Shown piece by piece: positions 154 to 24,000 of a stretch of DNA of 24,000 bases; position 1 is the first letter of the stretch, and every line of letters begins with the position of its first letter. The DNA lies in NCBI GenBank assembly GCA_043673815.1, contig JBIMKD010000272.1, positions 1-24,000 of the forward strand, in the 5' to 3' direction. The position numbers and the translations under genes were made by a program. Under the pieces are notes generated by a model, which saw only the letters and a list, made by a program, of their open reading frames with translations, ran no database searches and was not told the DNA's origin. Source of the DNA: Chromatiales bacterium. GTDB taxonomy: Bacteria; Pseudomonadota; Gammaproteobacteria; JACCXJ01.

Positions 154-1002
154 TCACGCAGCTTTCAGAGCGGCCAGGTAATGCAACAGTTCCTCCTGGA
201 CCGCTTGATTGGCTGACATACTGAGGGTGAGCTGTCCTTGCGGCCGGATCAAGCGGCCTGCGCGCTGGATAAGGCGACGCCGCAGGGTGTCGAGGCGCGC
301 GAAATTCCACAGGGCAGGGCGTTTCTCCAGGGTTGTGCGCGAAGGCGGATGGACGATCATCTGGAGCTCGCGGCCGAGGTTGTGGGCGAGGAGCACCGAG
401 AGCAGGTAGACCCAGGTACGGGTGGGCACGTAGTCGAGCTGATTGTCGGATTTGAGCTCGGCGAAGAGGCCTTCCTGACTCCCGCGGCCGTTATGGAAGG
501 CAAGCACCTTGCGGGCACCGAGGCGTTTATTGCTGAGGATAACCTTAAACTCATAGCCGAATTGGTGCGGAGTGAAGAGATCGAGTTGCACGGGATCCTT
601 GAATTGCTGTTTTACCCGCGTGCGAATAAAGAGGAAACGATGGCGAACGTTCCAGGCCTTAGGTTTCCACTGCGCTTCGAAGTAGGCACACCCCGCCCCG
701 ATCCGCCACCACCAGCGGCGCGCTTCAATGCGCGCTTTGAGCTCGGCGAAGCGCTCGAAGGGGACGCTCACCGTATACTCCACCCCTTGGGCGTCGAGGC
801 TCCCGATGATTTCATCGCTGAAAAACGCACTGTCCATGCGCACCTCAATGCAGACCCCAGGGAGGGCGGCCCGTACCGTGGCGATACAGGCGAGGATGAA
901 CTCCCGGGCACCGTGGGAGTCATGGACGTTGCCGGATCGGTGCAGCACATCGAACACCTGCCCGGTTTGAGCCACGGTGAGATCCAGCGAAAAGCACGAA
1001 AC
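154..1002 (-). pseudogene. IS1380-family (DDE group 1) transposase, N-terminally truncated remnant
   Basis: The 273-aa ORF contains LHRSGNVHDSHGAREF...RMDSAFF...FHNGRGSQEGLFAELK, which matches the central and C-terminal parts of IS1380-type DDE transposases. The N-terminal region carrying the first catalytic Asp is absent. The ORF's start is an internal GTG, and an in-frame TGA lies at 1003-1005 just upstream. Confidence 0.75.
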
Positions 1003-11611: not shown

Positions 11612-12474
11612 AGTTGGTCACCTTTACCCACATGGGGGAGACGCGCATCGGCGTCGCCTCCGGCACCTACGTCTATGCGATCGGGTCGATCCCCGGTTAT
11701 CCGCGCGAGATGACGGAGCTGCTCGCGGCCGGGCAAGCGTTATTGGGCGATCTCGCCGGCCGCATCGAGCGTCAGTGCGAACGCATCGCGCTCGCGGACA
11801 TCCATCTCGAAGCGCCGCTGCTCCGGCCCCCCAAGTTTCTGGCGATCGGCTTGAATTATGCCGACCACATCACAGAGAAGGGCGGGTCGCGGCCAGCCTT
11901 TCCGACCATTTTCAACAAACAGTCGACCTGCGCGAACGGCCCCTACGACCCAATCCATAAACCCGGCGTCTCGGAGCAAGTGGACTACGAAGGCGAGCTA
12001 GGATTCGTGATCAGGCGCCGCTGCCGGCACGTGCCCGCGGCCCGGGCGCCGGAAGTGATTGCGGGTTATCTGATCGTGAACGATGTGTCGGTGCGCGATT
12101 GGCAAGCGCGCTCGCCGACGCTGACGCTAGGGAAGTCGTTCGACACGCATGGGCCCATCGGTCCGTGGATCGTGACCCCCGATGAGATCGGCGATCCTCA
12201 CGCGCTTGATGTCCGCACTTATGTCAACGGGGAACCGCGGCAAGCGTTCAACACGCGCGACATGATCTGGAACTGCTACCGCTTGGTCGAGCTGCTGTCG
12301 ACGGTTTTCACCTTGGAGCCCGGCGATGTCATATCCACGGGCACCGGGCGGGGTGTGGGGATGCGTCGCGACCCGCCCTCGTTCCTGCAGCCGGGCGATG
12401 TCGTGCGCATCGAGATCGAAGCGATTGGCGCTATCGAGAACCGCGTGATCGAAGAACCCGAGATTTTGTTTTAA
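11608..12474 (+). CDS. Fumarylacetoacetate hydrolase (FAH) family protein (HpcE/2-keto-4-pentenoate hydratase-like)
   Basis: MKLVTFTHMGETRIGV... N-terminus typical of the family. FAH-domain motifs KFLAIGLNYADH, DYEGELGFVI, NDVSVRDWQ, GKSFDT and GDVISTGTGRGVG. The start is chosen at the internal ATG 11608 rather than the track's GTG at 11566. Confidence 0.88.
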   Translation: MKLVTFTHMGETRIGVASGTYVYAIGSIPGYPREMTELLAAGQALLGDLAGRIERQCERIALADIHLEAPLLRPPKFLAIGLNYADHITEKGGSRPAFPTIFNKQSTCANGPYDPIHKPGVSEQVDYEGELGFVIRRRCRHVPAARAPEVIAGYLIVNDVSVRDWQARSPTLTLGKSFDTHGPIGPWIVTPDEIGDPHALDVRTYVNGEPRQAFNTRDMIWNCYRLVELLSTVFTLEPGDVISTGTGRGVGMRRDPPSFLQPGDVVRIEIEAIGAIENRVIEEPEILF

Positions 12475-12480
12475 AAAGAA

Positions 12481-12534
12481 GCTCTTCCGCAGAATTTGTC
12501 AGTGGAGAGACTGTCTGGCAATGATCGCATGATA
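12481..12534 (-). repeat. Repeat family copy B; forms the left outer inverted repeat of the DUF559 cassette
   Basis: See copy A. It begins GCTCTTCCGCAGAATTT exactly 6 nt after the TAA stop of the FAH gene. Confidence 0.6.
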
Positions 12535-12608: not shown

Positions 12609-12651
12609 GTTAACTCCCTCTCCCACCGGGAGAGGGCAGGGGTGAGGGGAT
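12609..12651. repeat. Inner inverted repeat, left arm (43 nt), itself containing the hairpin CCCTCTCCC-ACC-GGGAGAGGG
   Basis: The reverse complement matches 12918-12960 at 41/43 positions by hand alignment. An internal perfect 9-bp stem spans 12616-12636. Confidence 0.85.
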
Positions 12652-12661
12652 AGAGAGACCG

Positions 12662-12916
12662 ATGAACAGTCTGGCCCGGGCGCTGCGGAAGAATTCGACC
12701 GAGGCGGAGCGGTGCTTGTGGAGTCGATTGCGCGCTCGACGGCTCGACGGCGTCAAGTTTCGACGTCAACGGTCCTTGGCCCCTACGTCGTGGATTTCCT
12801 CTGCTTGGAGCCCAAAGATGTCATCGAGGTCGATGGTGGCCAGCATGTCGAGCAGGTCTCGAACGACTTGCGACGGACTGAATATCTCAAGGTATTGGGT
12901 TATCACGTGTGGTTGA
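12662..12916 (+). pseudogene. DUF559 (Vsr-like endonuclease fold) domain protein, frameshifted and 3'-truncated
   Basis: Frame 2 reads MNSLARALRKNSTEAERCLWSRLRARRLDGVKFRRQR. Frame 1 then continues LGPYVVDFLCLEPKDVIEVDGGQHVEQVSNDLRRTEYLKVLGYHV. Together these reproduce the DUF559 pattern (LR..T.AE..LW..LR...FRRQ..IGPY.VDF.C.....IE.DG.QH) if 1 nt is restored near 12769-12771. The usual C-terminal roughly 30 aa are replaced by translation of the right inner repeat. Confidence 0.75.
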
Positions 12917-12917
12917 G

Positions 12918-12960
12918 ATCCCCTCACCCCCGCCCTCTCCCGGCGGGAGAGGGAGTTAAC
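12918..12960. repeat. Inner inverted repeat, right arm (43 nt) with the hairpin CCCTCTCCC-GGC-GGGAGAGGG
   Basis: 41/43 match to the reverse complement of 12609-12651. Confidence 0.85.
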
Positions 12961-12964
12961 GGAA

Positions 12965-12992
12965 TACCCATAGATTCTGCCGAGGAGCCCAA
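12965..12992 (+). repeat. Repeat family copy C (short); forms the right outer inverted repeat of the DUF559 cassette
   Basis: TACCCATAGATTCTGCCGAGGAGCCCAA versus copy A TACCCATAAATTCTGCGGAAGAGCCCAA is 25/28 identical. Its outer 17 nt match the copy B end in inverted orientation at 14/17. Confidence 0.55.
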
Positions 12993-13141
12993 AAAAGCAT
13001 CGACCGGATTTTTTTCCTAAAGAAGCTCTGCAAAGGTGTCGCGAGCAAGCCCAGATGCGCGAAGCCGCGGAGCGAGTCGCGAGACATATCGCTCGCCTTC
13101 AGCGGCGCGGCGCTTTTTGCCGCGTCTGCTGCAAGGCGTTG

Positions 13142-13717
13142 TTAGGCACATTCACAGGACGATTGACATTTACCCTTGGTGCGCGGGTGATGGTCGGCGA
13201 TTTCACCCGACGGCGACAGTTCAACATGGCAGCAGGCAAGCACTCCGTCTTTGAGCATTTTGCGTCCGCGGCTTGCTCTGCTCTTTACAGCAGGTACGGA
13301 TAAGCTCAGCTCGGAGGCTACTGCTCGCATGCTTTTGCCTTGAAACTCCGTGCCCAACAGAACATCTCGATAGATGCCGGGCAGTTGCCGGGCCAGTGGC
13401 AATAGACAAGTTGACAGTGCTTGCAGCGACGAACTCTCTTCGGCCGTCTCCGCCGCCAAGTCCTCCAGTTCGCTCATCAAACGCTTGGCCCGGTAGTGAT
13501 CGATCAGTACATTGCGGGCAATCGTGTGGAGCCATGCCGCCATTTTTTCCGACGACCTGGCAGTTTGGCCGGAAGCCAGCGCCCTGAGAAAGACGGTGTG
13601 CAACAAGTCTTCCGCGATTGCAGCGTCTTCAACGCGCCTCCGCAAATAACTGAGCAGACCGTTTCGCAGTGTCCTGTATGAGGCTGCGATTTCATCACGG
13701 GACGCTGGCTCCGACAT
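13142..13717 (-). CDS. ECF-type sigma-70 family sigma factor with a Cys/His-rich C-terminal extension (CorE/SigZ-like)
   Basis: Region 2 (EDLLHTVFLRAL...WLHTIARNVLIDHYR) and region 4 (LPGIYRDVLLGTEFQGKSMRAVASELSLSVPAVKSRASRGRKML) are recognisable. The tail is ACCHVELSPSGEIADHHPRTKGKCQSSCECA. The start is placed at ATG 13717, 10 nt after the upstream gene's stop, with GAGGGG as SD. The track's longer ORF (to 13948) overlaps the upstream gene and is rejected. Confidence 0.8.
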   Translation of the reverse strand: MSEPASRDEIAASYRTLRNGLLSYLRRRVEDAAIAEDLLHTVFLRALASGQTARSSEKMAAWLHTIARNVLIDHYRAKRLMSELEDLAAETAEESSSLQALSTCLLPLARQLPGIYRDVLLGTEFQGKSMRAVASELSLSVPAVKSRASRGRKMLKDGVLACCHVELSPSGEIADHHPRTKGKCQSSCECA

Positions 13718-13727
13718 GTTCTGCCCC

Positions 13728-14234
13728 TCAACCACAACAGGCACCAGCCGCAGGCCCTTCACTGTTGGGAATGCAACACGCAGTCTTTGCCTGTGCGCCG
13801 TCCTGTGTCGAAGCGTTGACCGGAATGCAACAGGCTCCAGTTTGATTGGCAGTGTCTTGGCCGAACTCCTTTGCTTCGAACATGGTGTGAAAGTGTTCCC
13901 AAGCCAAGCCTTGAGGGTCAACCGTCCAGTGCTTTTCGCTGTTCGCATAGCAGCAGGCGGTCTCGCCCTGATCCAGGACTTGCCCGTCGGACGCGGCCTC
14001 CGCCAACGCCTTCAAAGACTTCAATTCCTCTGGTGAATCGGCCTGGAATCCGAAGTGATTCAGACCGACCGCGTGGCACCGTGAGGAAATGGCGAAGTTT
14101 ACGCGCGGATCCTCCAGCATCCACTTTGCGTAATCGTTCCGCTCCACGGATGGGGACTGCCCAAAGAGTTTGCTGTAAAACACGATGCTCTGACTGAGGT
14201 CCCTTACGGCGACGTGTGCATGAAAGCGTTTCAT
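13728..14234 (-). CDS. ArsI/CadI-family VOC (glyoxalase/bleomycin-resistance/dioxygenase fold) metal(loid)-resistance enzyme with vicinal-cysteine motifs
   Basis: MKRFHAHVAVRDLSQSIVFYSKLFG...DYAKWMLEDPRVNFAIS...GLNHFGFQ...ETACCYANSEKHWTVDPQGLAWEHFHT matches the ArsI/CadI pattern, including the core CC pair. The tail carries three more CC pairs (GACCIP, TACCIP, GACCG). GGAGG SD lies upstream. Confidence 0.85.
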   Translation of the reverse strand: MKRFHAHVAVRDLSQSIVFYSKLFGQSPSVERNDYAKWMLEDPRVNFAISSRCHAVGLNHFGFQADSPEELKSLKALAEAASDGQVLDQGETACCYANSEKHWTVDPQGLAWEHFHTMFEAKEFGQDTANQTGACCIPVNASTQDGAQAKTACCIPNSEGPAAGACCG

Positions 14235-14420
14235 TGCTTACCTCCGGCGAGTGATGAGCGTCCACACGGACGCACAGGTATAGACGGAGCACCTCGCGAA
14301 AGGTCGCAAAGAATCATCGTGAGCGGTTGTGCCTAACAGGTAGATAGGCAAGCGACGAGCGAGCACGCGACAAAGCAGATGGGCTGCGCAGTAACTCTTG
14401 CCGAGTTTCCGAAAGCGATA

Positions 14421-22892: not shown

Positions 22893-24000
22893 CTGACCAA
22901 GGGTTTTCTGACGCACAAAAACGCTACCTGGAGGGATTCACCAGCGGCATCCAGATTGCTCAGCGGATGCGTGGCCTGCCAGGGGCTGCGGGTGAGAGCG
23001 CCCCTGCCCAGAGGCTGAACGGGGACGCTGCACCCGCCGCCCCCGAGGCGATCCACTTCGAGGCGCAGAACCGCTTTATTGCCGAGGGCAAGAAGCTCGT
23101 CGCCGAGGAGAAGGCCAAGCGCGAGCGCCATCCCCTCGACCGCTGGGACGAGCTCATCAAGCGCGCCGAAGCGGGTGAGTTCCCTAAGGGCACGGACGTC
23201 TTTTGCACCAAGTTCCTTGGGCTCTTCTACGTGGCGCCCGCTCAGGACGCCTATATGTGTCGCCTGCGCCTGCCCAACGGCATCCTAAGCTCTCACCAGT
23301 TTTGCGGCGTCGCGGACCTCGCCGAGCGCTATGGGGGCGGCTACAGTCACGTGACCACGCGGGCGAACCTTCAACTCCGGGAGATCAAGGCGCAGGACGG
23401 GCCGAAGGTGCTCATGGGCCTCCACGAGCTCGGCATCATCAATCGCGGCGCGGGGGCTGACAACATCCGCAACGTCACCGGATCACCGACCGCGGGGATT
23501 GATCCCCAGGAGCTCATCGACACCCGCCCGCTCGCGCGCGAGCTCCATTACTACATCCTCAATCACCGGGAACTCTACGGCCTACCGCGCAAGTTCAATA
23601 TCGCCTTCGATGGCGGCGCCGCCATCAGTGTGCTTGAGGACACCAACGACATCGGCTTTGCGGCGGTGCGTGTGGCCGAGGGTAAAGCGGTGGAGCCCGG
23701 CATCTATTTCCGGCTCCAGCTTGGGGGGATCACCGGGCACGGGGACTTCGCCCGTGACACCGGCATCCTGGTCAAACCCGAGCAGTGCCTTGCGGTGGCA
23801 GCGGCGGTGGTGCGGGTGTTCATCGCACAGGGCGACCGCACGGACCGCACAAAAGCACGGCTCAAGTACGTGCTCGACCGGTGGGGCCTGGAGAAATATC
23901 TCGAGGAGACCGAGAAACACCTCTCCTTCAAGCTCATCCGCTTTCCCCTAGAGGATTGTGAACCGCGCCCGCCAGTCGACCGACTATCCCACATTGGTTT
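22889..24000 (+). CDS. NirA-family ferredoxin-type sulfite/nitrite reductase hemoprotein (5' part; continues beyond the window)
   Basis: Hand translation of frame 2 is open to the window end: [20 protein letters not shown]...[58 protein letters not shown]...[17 protein letters not shown]...[13 protein letters not shown]. These are classical nitrite/sulfite reductase ferredoxin-like half-domain motifs. It is absent from the ORF track because no stop codon falls in the window. Confidence 0.85.

Follow-up and report, generated by a model that had tools for sequence, protein, structure and literature searches.

Bacterial arsenic sensing is, to our knowledge, ascribed almost entirely to repressors of the ArsR family, with AioXSR controlling arsenite oxidation. 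For ECF238, a large group of extracytoplasmic function (ECF) sigma factors, we know of a signal only for the myxobacterial members that respond to Cu and to Cd/Zn. Metal-dependent activity of these proteins, CorE and CorE2, needs both the Cys-rich domain at the C-terminus and all of the linker Cys (PMC4937300), and the CxC motif between sigma2 and sigma4.2 is essential (PMC4937300, PMC8999054). A short Cys-rich C-terminal extension and a linker Cys are regarded as traits of ECF238 as such (PMC7826278; bioRxiv 10.1101/2019.12.11.873521 supplement), and the published ECF classification describes the group without conserved promoter or autoregulation and with almost no conserved context (bioRxiv 10.1101/2019.12.11.873521). 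Here, we describe a locus in which a SigZ-like, ECF238-type sigma factor is encoded directly downstream of a gene of the ArsI/CadI family. The locus lies in a stretch of 24,000 nt of a Chromatiales bacterium (assembly GCA_043673815.1, contig JBIMKD010000272.1, positions 1 to 24,000 of the forward strand), which as a whole is called the window in the following.

The gene of the ArsI/CadI-family VOC enzyme (14234..13728, minus strand, 168 aa) and the gene of the sigma factor (13717..13142, minus strand, 191 aa) would constitute an operon of two genes under positive autoregulation and act as a one-component, probably arsenical switch, a reading which we hold with moderate confidence. A first-pass annotation, made by a model from the DNA letters, had proposed a self-contained metal(loid)-sensing sigma factor combined with a detoxifying or buffering enzyme, and this interpretation is supported as far as sequence analysis goes. 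It had also regarded the arrangement as not previously described. In agreement with this, no paper was found in the literature in which ars, arsI or arsM genes are tied to a sigma factor of the ECF or SigZ-like kind; the "ArsI" of Streptomyces papers is, judged from the titles, presumably an unrelated anti-sigma factor of the same name. Both protein families as well as self-sensing Cys-tailed ECF sigma factors are already known. New with respect to the accessible literature are the conserved enzyme-sigma operon with a sigma factor replacing ArsR, the family-wide promoter with autoregulation and the arsenic context of SigZ-like sigma factors.

A conserved pair of enzyme and sigma factor

Both genes are read from the same strand. 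The stop codon TGA of the enzyme gene (13730-13728) is followed by 10 nt, GGGGCAGAAC, and by the ATG of the sigma gene at 13717, and the Shine-Dalgarno sequence of the latter, GAGGGG (13724..13730, minus strand), overlaps the stop codon; a direct reading confirms the spacing that had been annotated. The enzyme gene possesses a Shine-Dalgarno sequence of its own, GGAGG at 14241..14245 (minus strand), which was likewise read directly and is kept as an AGGAG column in the alignment of leaders.

The conservation of this pair was followed from both sides. A forward scan, using an alignment of sigma homologs against one genome per species, yielded 80 loci. An ArsI/CadI homolog adjoins the sigma gene in ten of them and is located directly upstream in seven of these ten; Gamma- and Betaproteobacteria, Nitrospira and a myxobacterium are among the carriers. 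For the reverse scan, metagenome contigs were searched with the enzyme as query. Here, a SigZ-like gene begins 16-54 nt past the enzyme match in 12 of the 13 closest relatives (L081-L093), and the thirteenth, L088, has kept a truncated N-terminal remnant of the sigma gene, while among the remaining 67 loci only L108 contains a sigma gene. By tblastn, 23 pair loci were obtained, some of them near-duplicates, with the start of the sigma gene 16-68 nt (in most cases 16-54 nt) past the enzyme match. In a simple neighbour-joining (NJ) tree of the 125-aa core, all 17 distinct H-type enzymes linked to a sigma gene, a number that takes in L088 with its truncated remnant, form one clade with zero unlinked members, and the sister of this clade is ArsR-linked. 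The co-occurrence on which the first-pass annotation had made its reading depend is thereby seen in 23 loci and in 17 enzymes of one clade. An identity threshold for separating sigma-linked from ArsR-linked enzymes had been tried and failed, since both kinds are found at ~57-58%; the NJ tree was used instead. Cultured carriers of the pair are Hydrogenophaga crassostreae and Acidithiobacillus thiooxidans.

The genes flanking the pair are unlike one another in every carrier compared. Clustering of neighbouring open reading frames (ORFs) over the 23 pair loci yielded no third conserved gene, and therefore the module consists of exactly two genes without an adjacent anti-sigma factor. For the window, the first-pass annotation had likewise noted that no anti-sigma gene follows. 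Downstream of the sigma gene a frameshifted DUF559 remnant is present, and among the adjacent genes, to which this search was confined and which leave a trans-encoded partner possible, no plausible anti-sigma gene was found. A scan of the region 3' of the sigma gene did not reveal an intrinsic terminator.

The co-transcribed partner of an ECF sigma factor is usually its regulator. Furthermore, the linkage is strict, the tight spacing suggests translational coupling, and the sigma factor diverges faster (37-44% identity) than the enzyme (58-70% identity). These features would fit a model in which sensing, or a role akin to that of an anti-sigma factor, falls to the enzyme-like protein and both tails interact, perhaps bridged by a metalloid. 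However, neither protein needs the other, because each occurs without the other: the same enzyme subfamily, CC tail included, is present in ArsR-controlled operons without a sigma factor, and SigZ-like sigma factors with the same Cys residues and promoter exist without the enzyme, beside arsM and other genes. We consider a sensory role of the enzyme very unlikely.

The best NCBIfam match of the enzyme is ArsI_CadI_VOC (NF041414), the full model (1-147) being covered with 112.7 bits at a cutoff of 116. T. curvata ArsI (TcArsI) is matched in the PDB (5c4p) with E=4e-14, and ArsI/CadI is also the NCBI name for homologs at ~70% identity. The roles of the ArsI residues have been described, including Gln103 as essential for catalysis (PMC12607644). 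Aligned to 5c4p, the residues H5 (T. curvata Gln8, His5 in Bacillus ArsI), H60 (His65, Bacillus His62) and E112 (Glu117, Bacillus Glu115) correspond to the Fe(II) ligands and match the Fe(II) triad of Bacillus ArsI. The vicinal pair Cys93-Cys94 within ETACCYA (codons at 13953..13958, minus strand) corresponds to the substrate-binding Cys98/Cys99 of T. curvata (Cys96/97 in other ArsI numbering). Within the second catalytic shell, Y35 (Tyr38) and K100 (Lys105) are conserved, and position 98 (codon 13941-13943) is not, displaying a Ser instead of Gln103. The C-terminal tail region (13731..13880, minus strand) contains three CC pairs in GACCIP, TACCIP and the terminal GACCG, all of which are present, together with ETACCYA, as had been read before. 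These three pairs are kept across the sigma-linked clade, and ArsR-linked relatives carry CC tails too. Thus, the label of an ArsI/CadI-like enzyme given in the first-pass annotation stands with regard to family match, Fe(II) triad and Cys pair, but the score remains under the cutoff and Gln103 is replaced.

Throughout the ArsI family, position 98 is Ser, Gly or Thr in 82 of 87 homologs. The other five (L015, L018, L021, L023, L025) carry Gln and are all of the canonical type, three being sigma-linked (Nitrospira, Enhygromyxa) and two sigma-adjacent (Chloroherpeton, Symploca). As an observation in its own right, Ser or Gly takes the position of the catalytic Gln103 throughout the MKRFH[AV]HV subfamily, whose members are frequent in ars operons of soil. 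This subfamily may thus be a functionally distinct, so far uncharacterised form of ArsI. The window enzyme falls into a still uncharacterised branch of the ArsI/CadI family, and a C-As lyase activity is plausible for it. For CadI, an adjacent regulator of the ArsR/SmtB family and induction by Cd would be expected; an ArsR-like gene was not found in the 24-kb window.

The 67 enzyme homologs without a linked sigma gene (44-57% identity) have the N-terminus MKRFH[AV]HV and CC-rich tails in common and sit in arsR-X-arsC-acr3 operons. An ArsR-family gene is located directly upstream on the same strand in 57 of them, an ArsC-type reductase gene is adjacent in 38, and Acr3 lies downstream in 25, which bears out the earlier statement that this enzyme family is normally under ArsR control. 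The sigma-linked clade would accordingly be a swap of the regulator, with the sigma factor in place of the ArsR repressor.

The sigma factor consists of the sigma2 and sigma4 domains only (Pfam Sigma70_r2, residues 14-79, and Sigma70_r4_2, residues 108-155). The two NCBIfam SigZ models score 138.5 bits (cutoff 168.65) and 139.9 bits (cutoff 212), both under the equivalog cutoffs, and the runner-up family reaches 69 bits, about half of the SigZ score. The SigZ match extends through the tail, which ends in ACCHVELSPSGEIADHHPRTKGKCQSSCECA, as already noted in the first reading. Residues 162-191 form this Cys/His-rich extension (13145..13234, minus strand) and hold five Cys, four of which are conserved. 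To describe the family, 150 representatives clustered at 50% identity or less were taken from an exhaustive HMMER search. Here, C162 and C163 are each present in 146 of the 150, G171 in 131, C184 in 129, C188 in 128 and the linker C104 (codon 13406..13408, minus strand) in 121. The 63 sigma homologs encoded at the loci display the same Cys pattern, with C104 in 55 of the 63. Conservation of the tail, which the first-pass annotation had named as decisive, is thus given. An AlphaFold2 model with a mean pLDDT (predicted local distance difference test) of 83 places a beta-hairpin (163-167/173-178) directly after the last sigma4 helix, and the 10-residue blocks across residues 161-180 have a mean pLDDT of 85 and 82.

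Both the short Cys-rich C-terminal extension and the linker Cys are family-wide and agree with the ECF238/SigZ-like traits. The linker itself, ALSTCLLP, contains a single Cys and not the CxC that defines the original ECF44. For this reason the sigma factor is classed by its sequence as SigZ-like, within the majority of ECF238 that derives from ECF24, and not as strictly CorE-like. Of the earlier designation CorE/SigZ-like, the second half is retained on the basis of NCBIfam, but the first half only in a loose meaning. By analogy to CorE and CorE2, the five conserved Cys, C104 and the four of the tail, would form a ligand site.

Predicted promoter and leader of the operon

Upstream of the enzyme gene, the motif TGCGAC(C)-16 nt-CGTCTA(TAC) is present in ~17 pair loci. 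The window copy spans 14308..14281 on the minus strand, with the predicted -35 element TGCGAC(CTTT) at 14299..14308 and the predicted -10 element CGTCTA, 16 nt downstream of TGCGAC, at 14281..14286. In an alignment of 16 leaders, TGCG.C and CGTC are invariant. Both the spacing and the CGTC in the -10 element are what one expects of an ECF promoter. With the stringent motif, this copy is the single match in the window, against a chance expectation of 0.02. A loose pattern gives ~1 chance copy per window and was rejected as uninformative unless combined with comparative data or the stringent pattern.

Altogether, 38 distinct promoter instances result in the consensus TGCGWCCTTTT...CGTCT. Positions that were unconstrained by the search are conserved as well; for example, 36 of the 38 have a T after CGTC, which was not part of the search pattern. 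Among 36 SigZ-like loci, 22 motif matches were counted, and in 16 of these loci a match falls between -700 and +150 nt relative to the sigma gene. Four matches came from the 42 loci that automatic sorting had assigned to other ECF sigma factors, all of them in the mis-sorted SigZ-like loci L005, L028 and L074, which leaves zero for true non-SigZ sigma factors. The motif hence appears to be specific to the SigZ-like family, and we infer that it is the sigma factor's own promoter. With this promoter in front of the enzyme-sigma operon, the sigma factor is expected to drive its own production, which implies positive autoregulation of the operon. The supplement of the ECF classification describes ECF238 without a conserved promoter, and the conserved context, a permease and a thioredoxin-like protein, is given for one subgroup only (bioRxiv 10.1101/2019.12.11.873521). 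The motif was likely overlooked since it usually stands before the neighbouring gene and not directly before the sigma gene.

Some loci display natural variants of the arrangement. In A. thiooxidans L162 (3495-5001), an insertion sequence (IS) element (Transposase_mut) is situated between the SigZ-type promoter and the enzyme-sigma operon, but in another strain of the species, L163 (4919-5001), the arrangement is intact, making L162 a natural promoter-disconnection control. A freshwater lineage (L087, 4762-5001; L089, 3628-3867) contains ~170 nt inserted between promoter and enzyme gene. In L088 (5371-5637), which is related to these two, the sigma remnant is reduced to ~25 aa, and the enzyme gene and the promoter persist.

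An extra feature of the leader is the 6-bp hairpin GCGTCC-GTGT-GGACGC (14258..14273, minus strand; GCGTCC-ACAC-GGACGC on the forward strand). It had been placed in the probable 5' untranslated region, and its coordinates proved to be exact. The hairpin begins 7 nt past the -10 hexamer, approximately at the expected transcription start, where the mRNA is predicted to begin. Of 17 distinct leaders, 14 have a stem of 5 bp or more that begins 2-12 nt past the -10 element; in shuffles the figure is 4.3 +/- 1.7, and 14 was not attained in any of 2000 of them. The stems vary in sequence (GCGTCC/GGACGC, GCATC/GATGC, ATGAC/GTCAT, CTGTA/TACAG, GGCGAAGG/CCTTCGCC). The folding energy of single hairpins was rejected as evidence, as z-scores range from ~-4.9 to +1.6 and are mostly ~0; only the positional recurrence is significant. 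No T-run follows the stem, and no Rfam match was obtained in the leader or nearby. With modest confidence, the hairpin can be regarded as a 5'-terminal stem-loop protecting the mRNA. The stem GCATC-N6-GATGC, which is common to several distant loci, may instead be a protein-binding palindrome.

Arsenic context and the putative signal

The evidence on the signal comes from the first gene downstream of each SigZ-type promoter at other loci. This gene is arsM in seven loci, and all eight sigma-adjacent methyltransferases score 284-373 bits against the NCBIfam arsenite methyltransferase model (cutoff 263). ArsI-type genes follow the promoter in seven loci, and in L021 arsI is followed by acr3 and arsC. 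In three loci the promoter precedes the sigma gene itself. Other targets are a CC-tailed flavoprotein near an ArsK-like transporter and small CC-rich peptides. Furthermore, Acr3, ArsR and ArsC genes are frequent neighbours. For the ArsR proteins of A. ferrooxidans and C. glutamicum, the As(III) site has been described as a vicinal Cys pair plus a third Cys (PMC12607644). Because of the arsM, arsI and acr3 genes behind the same promoter type and of these Cys-pair As(III) sites, a trivalent arsenical is favoured as the ligand, perhaps methylarsenite given the bias toward arsM and arsI. The arsM gene of C. metallidurans has been reported to be transcribed from a non-RpoD promoter (PMC9045368).

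From this, the following mechanism is proposed. The SigZ-like sigma factor encoded by the second gene of the operon would recognise the TGCGAC-16 nt-CGTCTA promoter. It would act without an anti-sigma partner and carry its own sensor, consisting of C104 and of C162, C163, C184 and C188 in the beta-hairpin extension. The sigma factor would become transcription-competent upon binding of a thiophilic ligand, most likely a trivalent arsenical (As(III) or methylarsenite, for instance), in the way that CorE2 is activated by metals. The output would be more sigma factor and more of the ArsI-like thiol-rich enzyme, which could handle the arsenical by C-As cleavage or by binding, and the 5' stem-loop of the transcript would probably stabilise the mRNA. 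In this clade the sigma factor would have taken over from the ArsR repressor, and the pair would move between genomes as a unit.

The main rival to an arsenical signal is the sensing of Cd, Zn or Cu by the same architecture, the enzyme then being a CadI-like metal-binding or buffering protein whose CC tail sequesters the metal. Here, CorE2 offers a precedent, as its Cys-rich domain mediates activation by Cd and Zn (PMC4937300, PMC7826278), and CadI is covered by the same NCBIfam model as ArsI. The tail residues H164, H177 and H178 would suit Zn or Cd, but the family shows little conservation of the tail His (found at position 164 in only 35/150, with 176 mostly Tyr or Phe). Some promoters of the family precede a P-type ATPase and a permease resembling the SO_0444-like Cu/Zn exporters; in contrast, arsM and arsI are the commonest identifiable targets of this promoter type, the relatives of the enzyme sit in arsR-X-arsC-acr3 operons, and clustering of the neighbours detected czc, cad or cop genes in none of the pair loci. 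A divalent metal as the signal is therefore considered unlikely.

Likewise, the Cys residues could be a redox or electrophile switch operating by disulfide formation or S-alkylation, with an enzyme that detoxifies an electrophile in a glyoxalase- or FosA-like manner and not an arsenical. The VOC superfamily holds glyoxalases and thiol transferases, the enzyme shows weak Pfam Glyoxalase and NCBIfam Fos matches as well, and Cys switches are common among redox sensors. On the contrary, the enzyme has kept the Fe(II) triad and the vicinal Cys pair specific to ArsI, and the context of ars genes is strong. Thioredoxin-like proteins have been reported beside one ECF238 subgroup (bioRxiv 10.1101/2019.12.11.873521 supplement), but this subgroup has another tail and is devoid of the promoter motif. 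A redox switch is thus rather improbable.

The reading as an arsenical switch has its own difficulties. The enzyme stays ~3 bits below the cutoff of ArsI_CadI_VOC, and its Ser98, where TcArsI has Gln103, departs from the second shell expected of ArsI. The window is without an arsenite efflux or reductase gene, and As(III) released by a lyase would need genes elsewhere. The predicted promoter could in principle serve another ECF sigma factor instead. Among its targets elsewhere are also one P-type ATPase, Cys-rich peptides and one permease resembling Cu/Zn exporters, and the sigma family may sense thiophilic metals more broadly; the characterised relatives answer to Cu (CorE) or Cd/Zn (CorE2), not to arsenic. 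In addition, the samples of loci are biased by the peptide patterns used in scanning and contain near-duplicates.

Beyond the window, the CC-type SigZ/ECF238 sigma factors may represent an arsenical-sensing one-component family that is distributed over several phyla, shares the promoter TGCGWCCTTTT-N-CGTCT and switches on arsM, arsI, acr3/arsC and CC-rich binding proteins. This generalisation is put forward tentatively. If true, ECF sigma factors would for the first time include a class devoted to arsenic and offer an alternative to ArsR; this would also give a clue to the function of the orphan SigZ of B. subtilis, and the operon of the window would be the minimal, mobile and autoregulated form of the family.

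Several side observations concern other members of the sigma family. An arsM gene adjoins a SigZ-like sigma gene in L005, L006, L007, L011, L014, L016 and L074, with TGCGTC-N16-CGTCT before arsM, and in L074 the reading frame of the sigma gene continues into arsM. These loci stem from Ktedonobacter, Acidaminobacter, Verrucomicrobia, Gammaproteobacteria and Chloroflexia. In L017 (1052-1264) and L029 (6709-6915), ORFs of 68-70 aa with four CC pairs each (CCAPKGNATQCCTPSQ...GGACCAQPDDGSACCNK) follow SigZ-type promoters; they resemble a free-standing tail of the enzyme and could be arsenical-binding proteins. Furthermore, a flavin/NAD-binding oxidoreductase of ~450 aa with a CC-rich tail and a weak ArsO-like match is encoded behind a predicted SigZ-type promoter in both the Rhodoferax and the Chryseolinea genomes (L001, 4418-5770, minus strand; L029, 3512-4852, plus strand). 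In L001, it is followed by an ArsK-like transporter of the major facilitator superfamily and then by a second copy of the motif and an OlsE-like hydroxylase.

A second sigma subgroup (L030-L046, Betaproteobacteria and relatives) carries a different tail, x-C-[QK]-V-x-F-D...G-x-V-C-C, and has a PF03773-like permease and a small thioredoxin-like ORF as linked neighbours, in agreement with the sole conserved context reported for ECF238, that of subgroup s2. The TGCGWC-N16-CGTC motif is absent from this subgroup, and two of its members (L042, L046) lie inside arsR-arsI-arsC-acr3 clusters. The permease beside one sigma subgroup had been considered as ArsP, but its nearest NCBIfam families are SaoE and SO_0444 Cu/Zn efflux, and it was discarded as evidence for arsenic.

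Genomic setting and comparison with known systems

No ars or cad genes were detected by Pfam on all large ORFs of the 24 kb, and tblastn with ArsR, ArsC, Acr3, ArsM and permease queries against the same 24 kb gave E=0.07 as the best value. The earlier remark that arsR, arsC, arsB/acr3 and cad genes are missing nearby is in line with this. The other genes of the window are of the housekeeping kind, namely pdxA, surA, lptD, a fumarylacetoacetate hydrolase-family gene, mpl, a globin gene and ydjM, and a LytS/LytTR pair and a sigma-54 activator are encoded as well.

The GC content at third codon positions (GC3) is the lowest of the window in the sigma gene (0.609) and the enzyme gene (0.645), compared to 0.727 +/- 0.039 in 18 other ORFs. 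The overall GC content (0.565) was dismissed as a sign of acquisition, since it is low but not distinctive, lptD and others being equally low; only GC3 separates the module. The impression of a less GC-rich module in the first-pass annotation is therefore correct for GC3 but not unique for overall GC. Immediately downstream of the pair, outside the module, mobile debris is present in the form of a frameshifted, truncated DUF559 remnant between inverted repeats of 43 nt with 95% complementarity (12609-12651 / 12918-12960, the element spanning 12609..12960). The DUF559 Pfam matches cover 12662-13020 in two frames, and the insert is bracketed by a 21-nt direct repeat (12465-12485 / 13009-13029). 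In the closest relative, L083, the DUF559 gene is intact at the same place. The low GC3, the non-syntenic flanks, the DUF559 debris and the IS-interrupted copy fit a horizontal transfer of the pair as a unit, as the acquisition suspected earlier would require.

Two further features are located toward the edges of the window. A DDE transposase fragment at 154-975 (minus strand) matches Pfam DDE_Tnp_1_4 over profile positions 179-431 only. An ORF of 150 aa at 23499-23951 (plus strand) has a GC content of 0.38 at first and 0.81 at second codon positions and is without a Pfam match; it is probably not a real gene in that frame.

The operon and its relatives supply ECF238 with a predicted promoter, predicted targets and a likely ligand class. 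In evolutionary terms, they would display the exchange of a repressor for a self-sensing activator before the same enzyme. Its small size (~1.2 kb), well-defined promoter and independence of a partner protein mean that the unit could serve as a compact, orthogonal biosensor for arsenicals.

Compared to the ArsR-controlled arsI of Bacillus sp. MD1 and T. curvata (5c4p), the window enzyme shares the fold, the Fe(II) ligands, the Cys pair, the Tyr and the Lys. In contrast to these systems, its regulator is a downstream sigma activator and not an upstream ArsR repressor, and Ser98 replaces Gln103. CadI (Rv2641) of M. tuberculosis belongs to the same NCBIfam family, ArsI_CadI_VOC. We take CadI to be of the Gln-type (QDK) and to adjoin an ArsR-family gene, whereas the window enzyme is of the His-type with SEK.

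On the side of the sigma factor, direct sensing via its own Cys-rich C-terminal extension, as suggested here, has been proposed for OrbS, the iron-starvation sigma factor of Burkholderia cenocepacia (PMC9023288). OrbS belongs to another ECF group and its signal is iron, which represses instead of activating. CorE and CorE2 of M. xanthus (original ECF44, CorE2 being ECF238s15) like the window sigma factor act without an anti-sigma factor and possess a short C-terminal Cys-rich domain and linker Cys, with a switch-on by the ligand being proposed (PMC4937300). The window sigma factor differs from them in having one linker Cys, a CC-x20-C-x3-C arrangement and an arsenic-type context instead of one of Cu or Cd/Zn. 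Furthermore, corE2 itself is not metal-induced, whereas the window operon appears to be autoregulated from a conserved promoter. SigZ of B. subtilis (ECF238s9; TIGR02959, NF007215) has, like the window sigma factor, no anti-sigma factor and C-terminal Cys (PMC7826278); its signal, targets and conserved neighbours are not known, and it was reported not to be autoregulated (bioRxiv 10.1101/2019.12.11.873521 supplement). The window sigma factor, which scores below the equivalog cutoffs of this protein, stands apart from it in that promoter, target and autoregulation can all be predicted.

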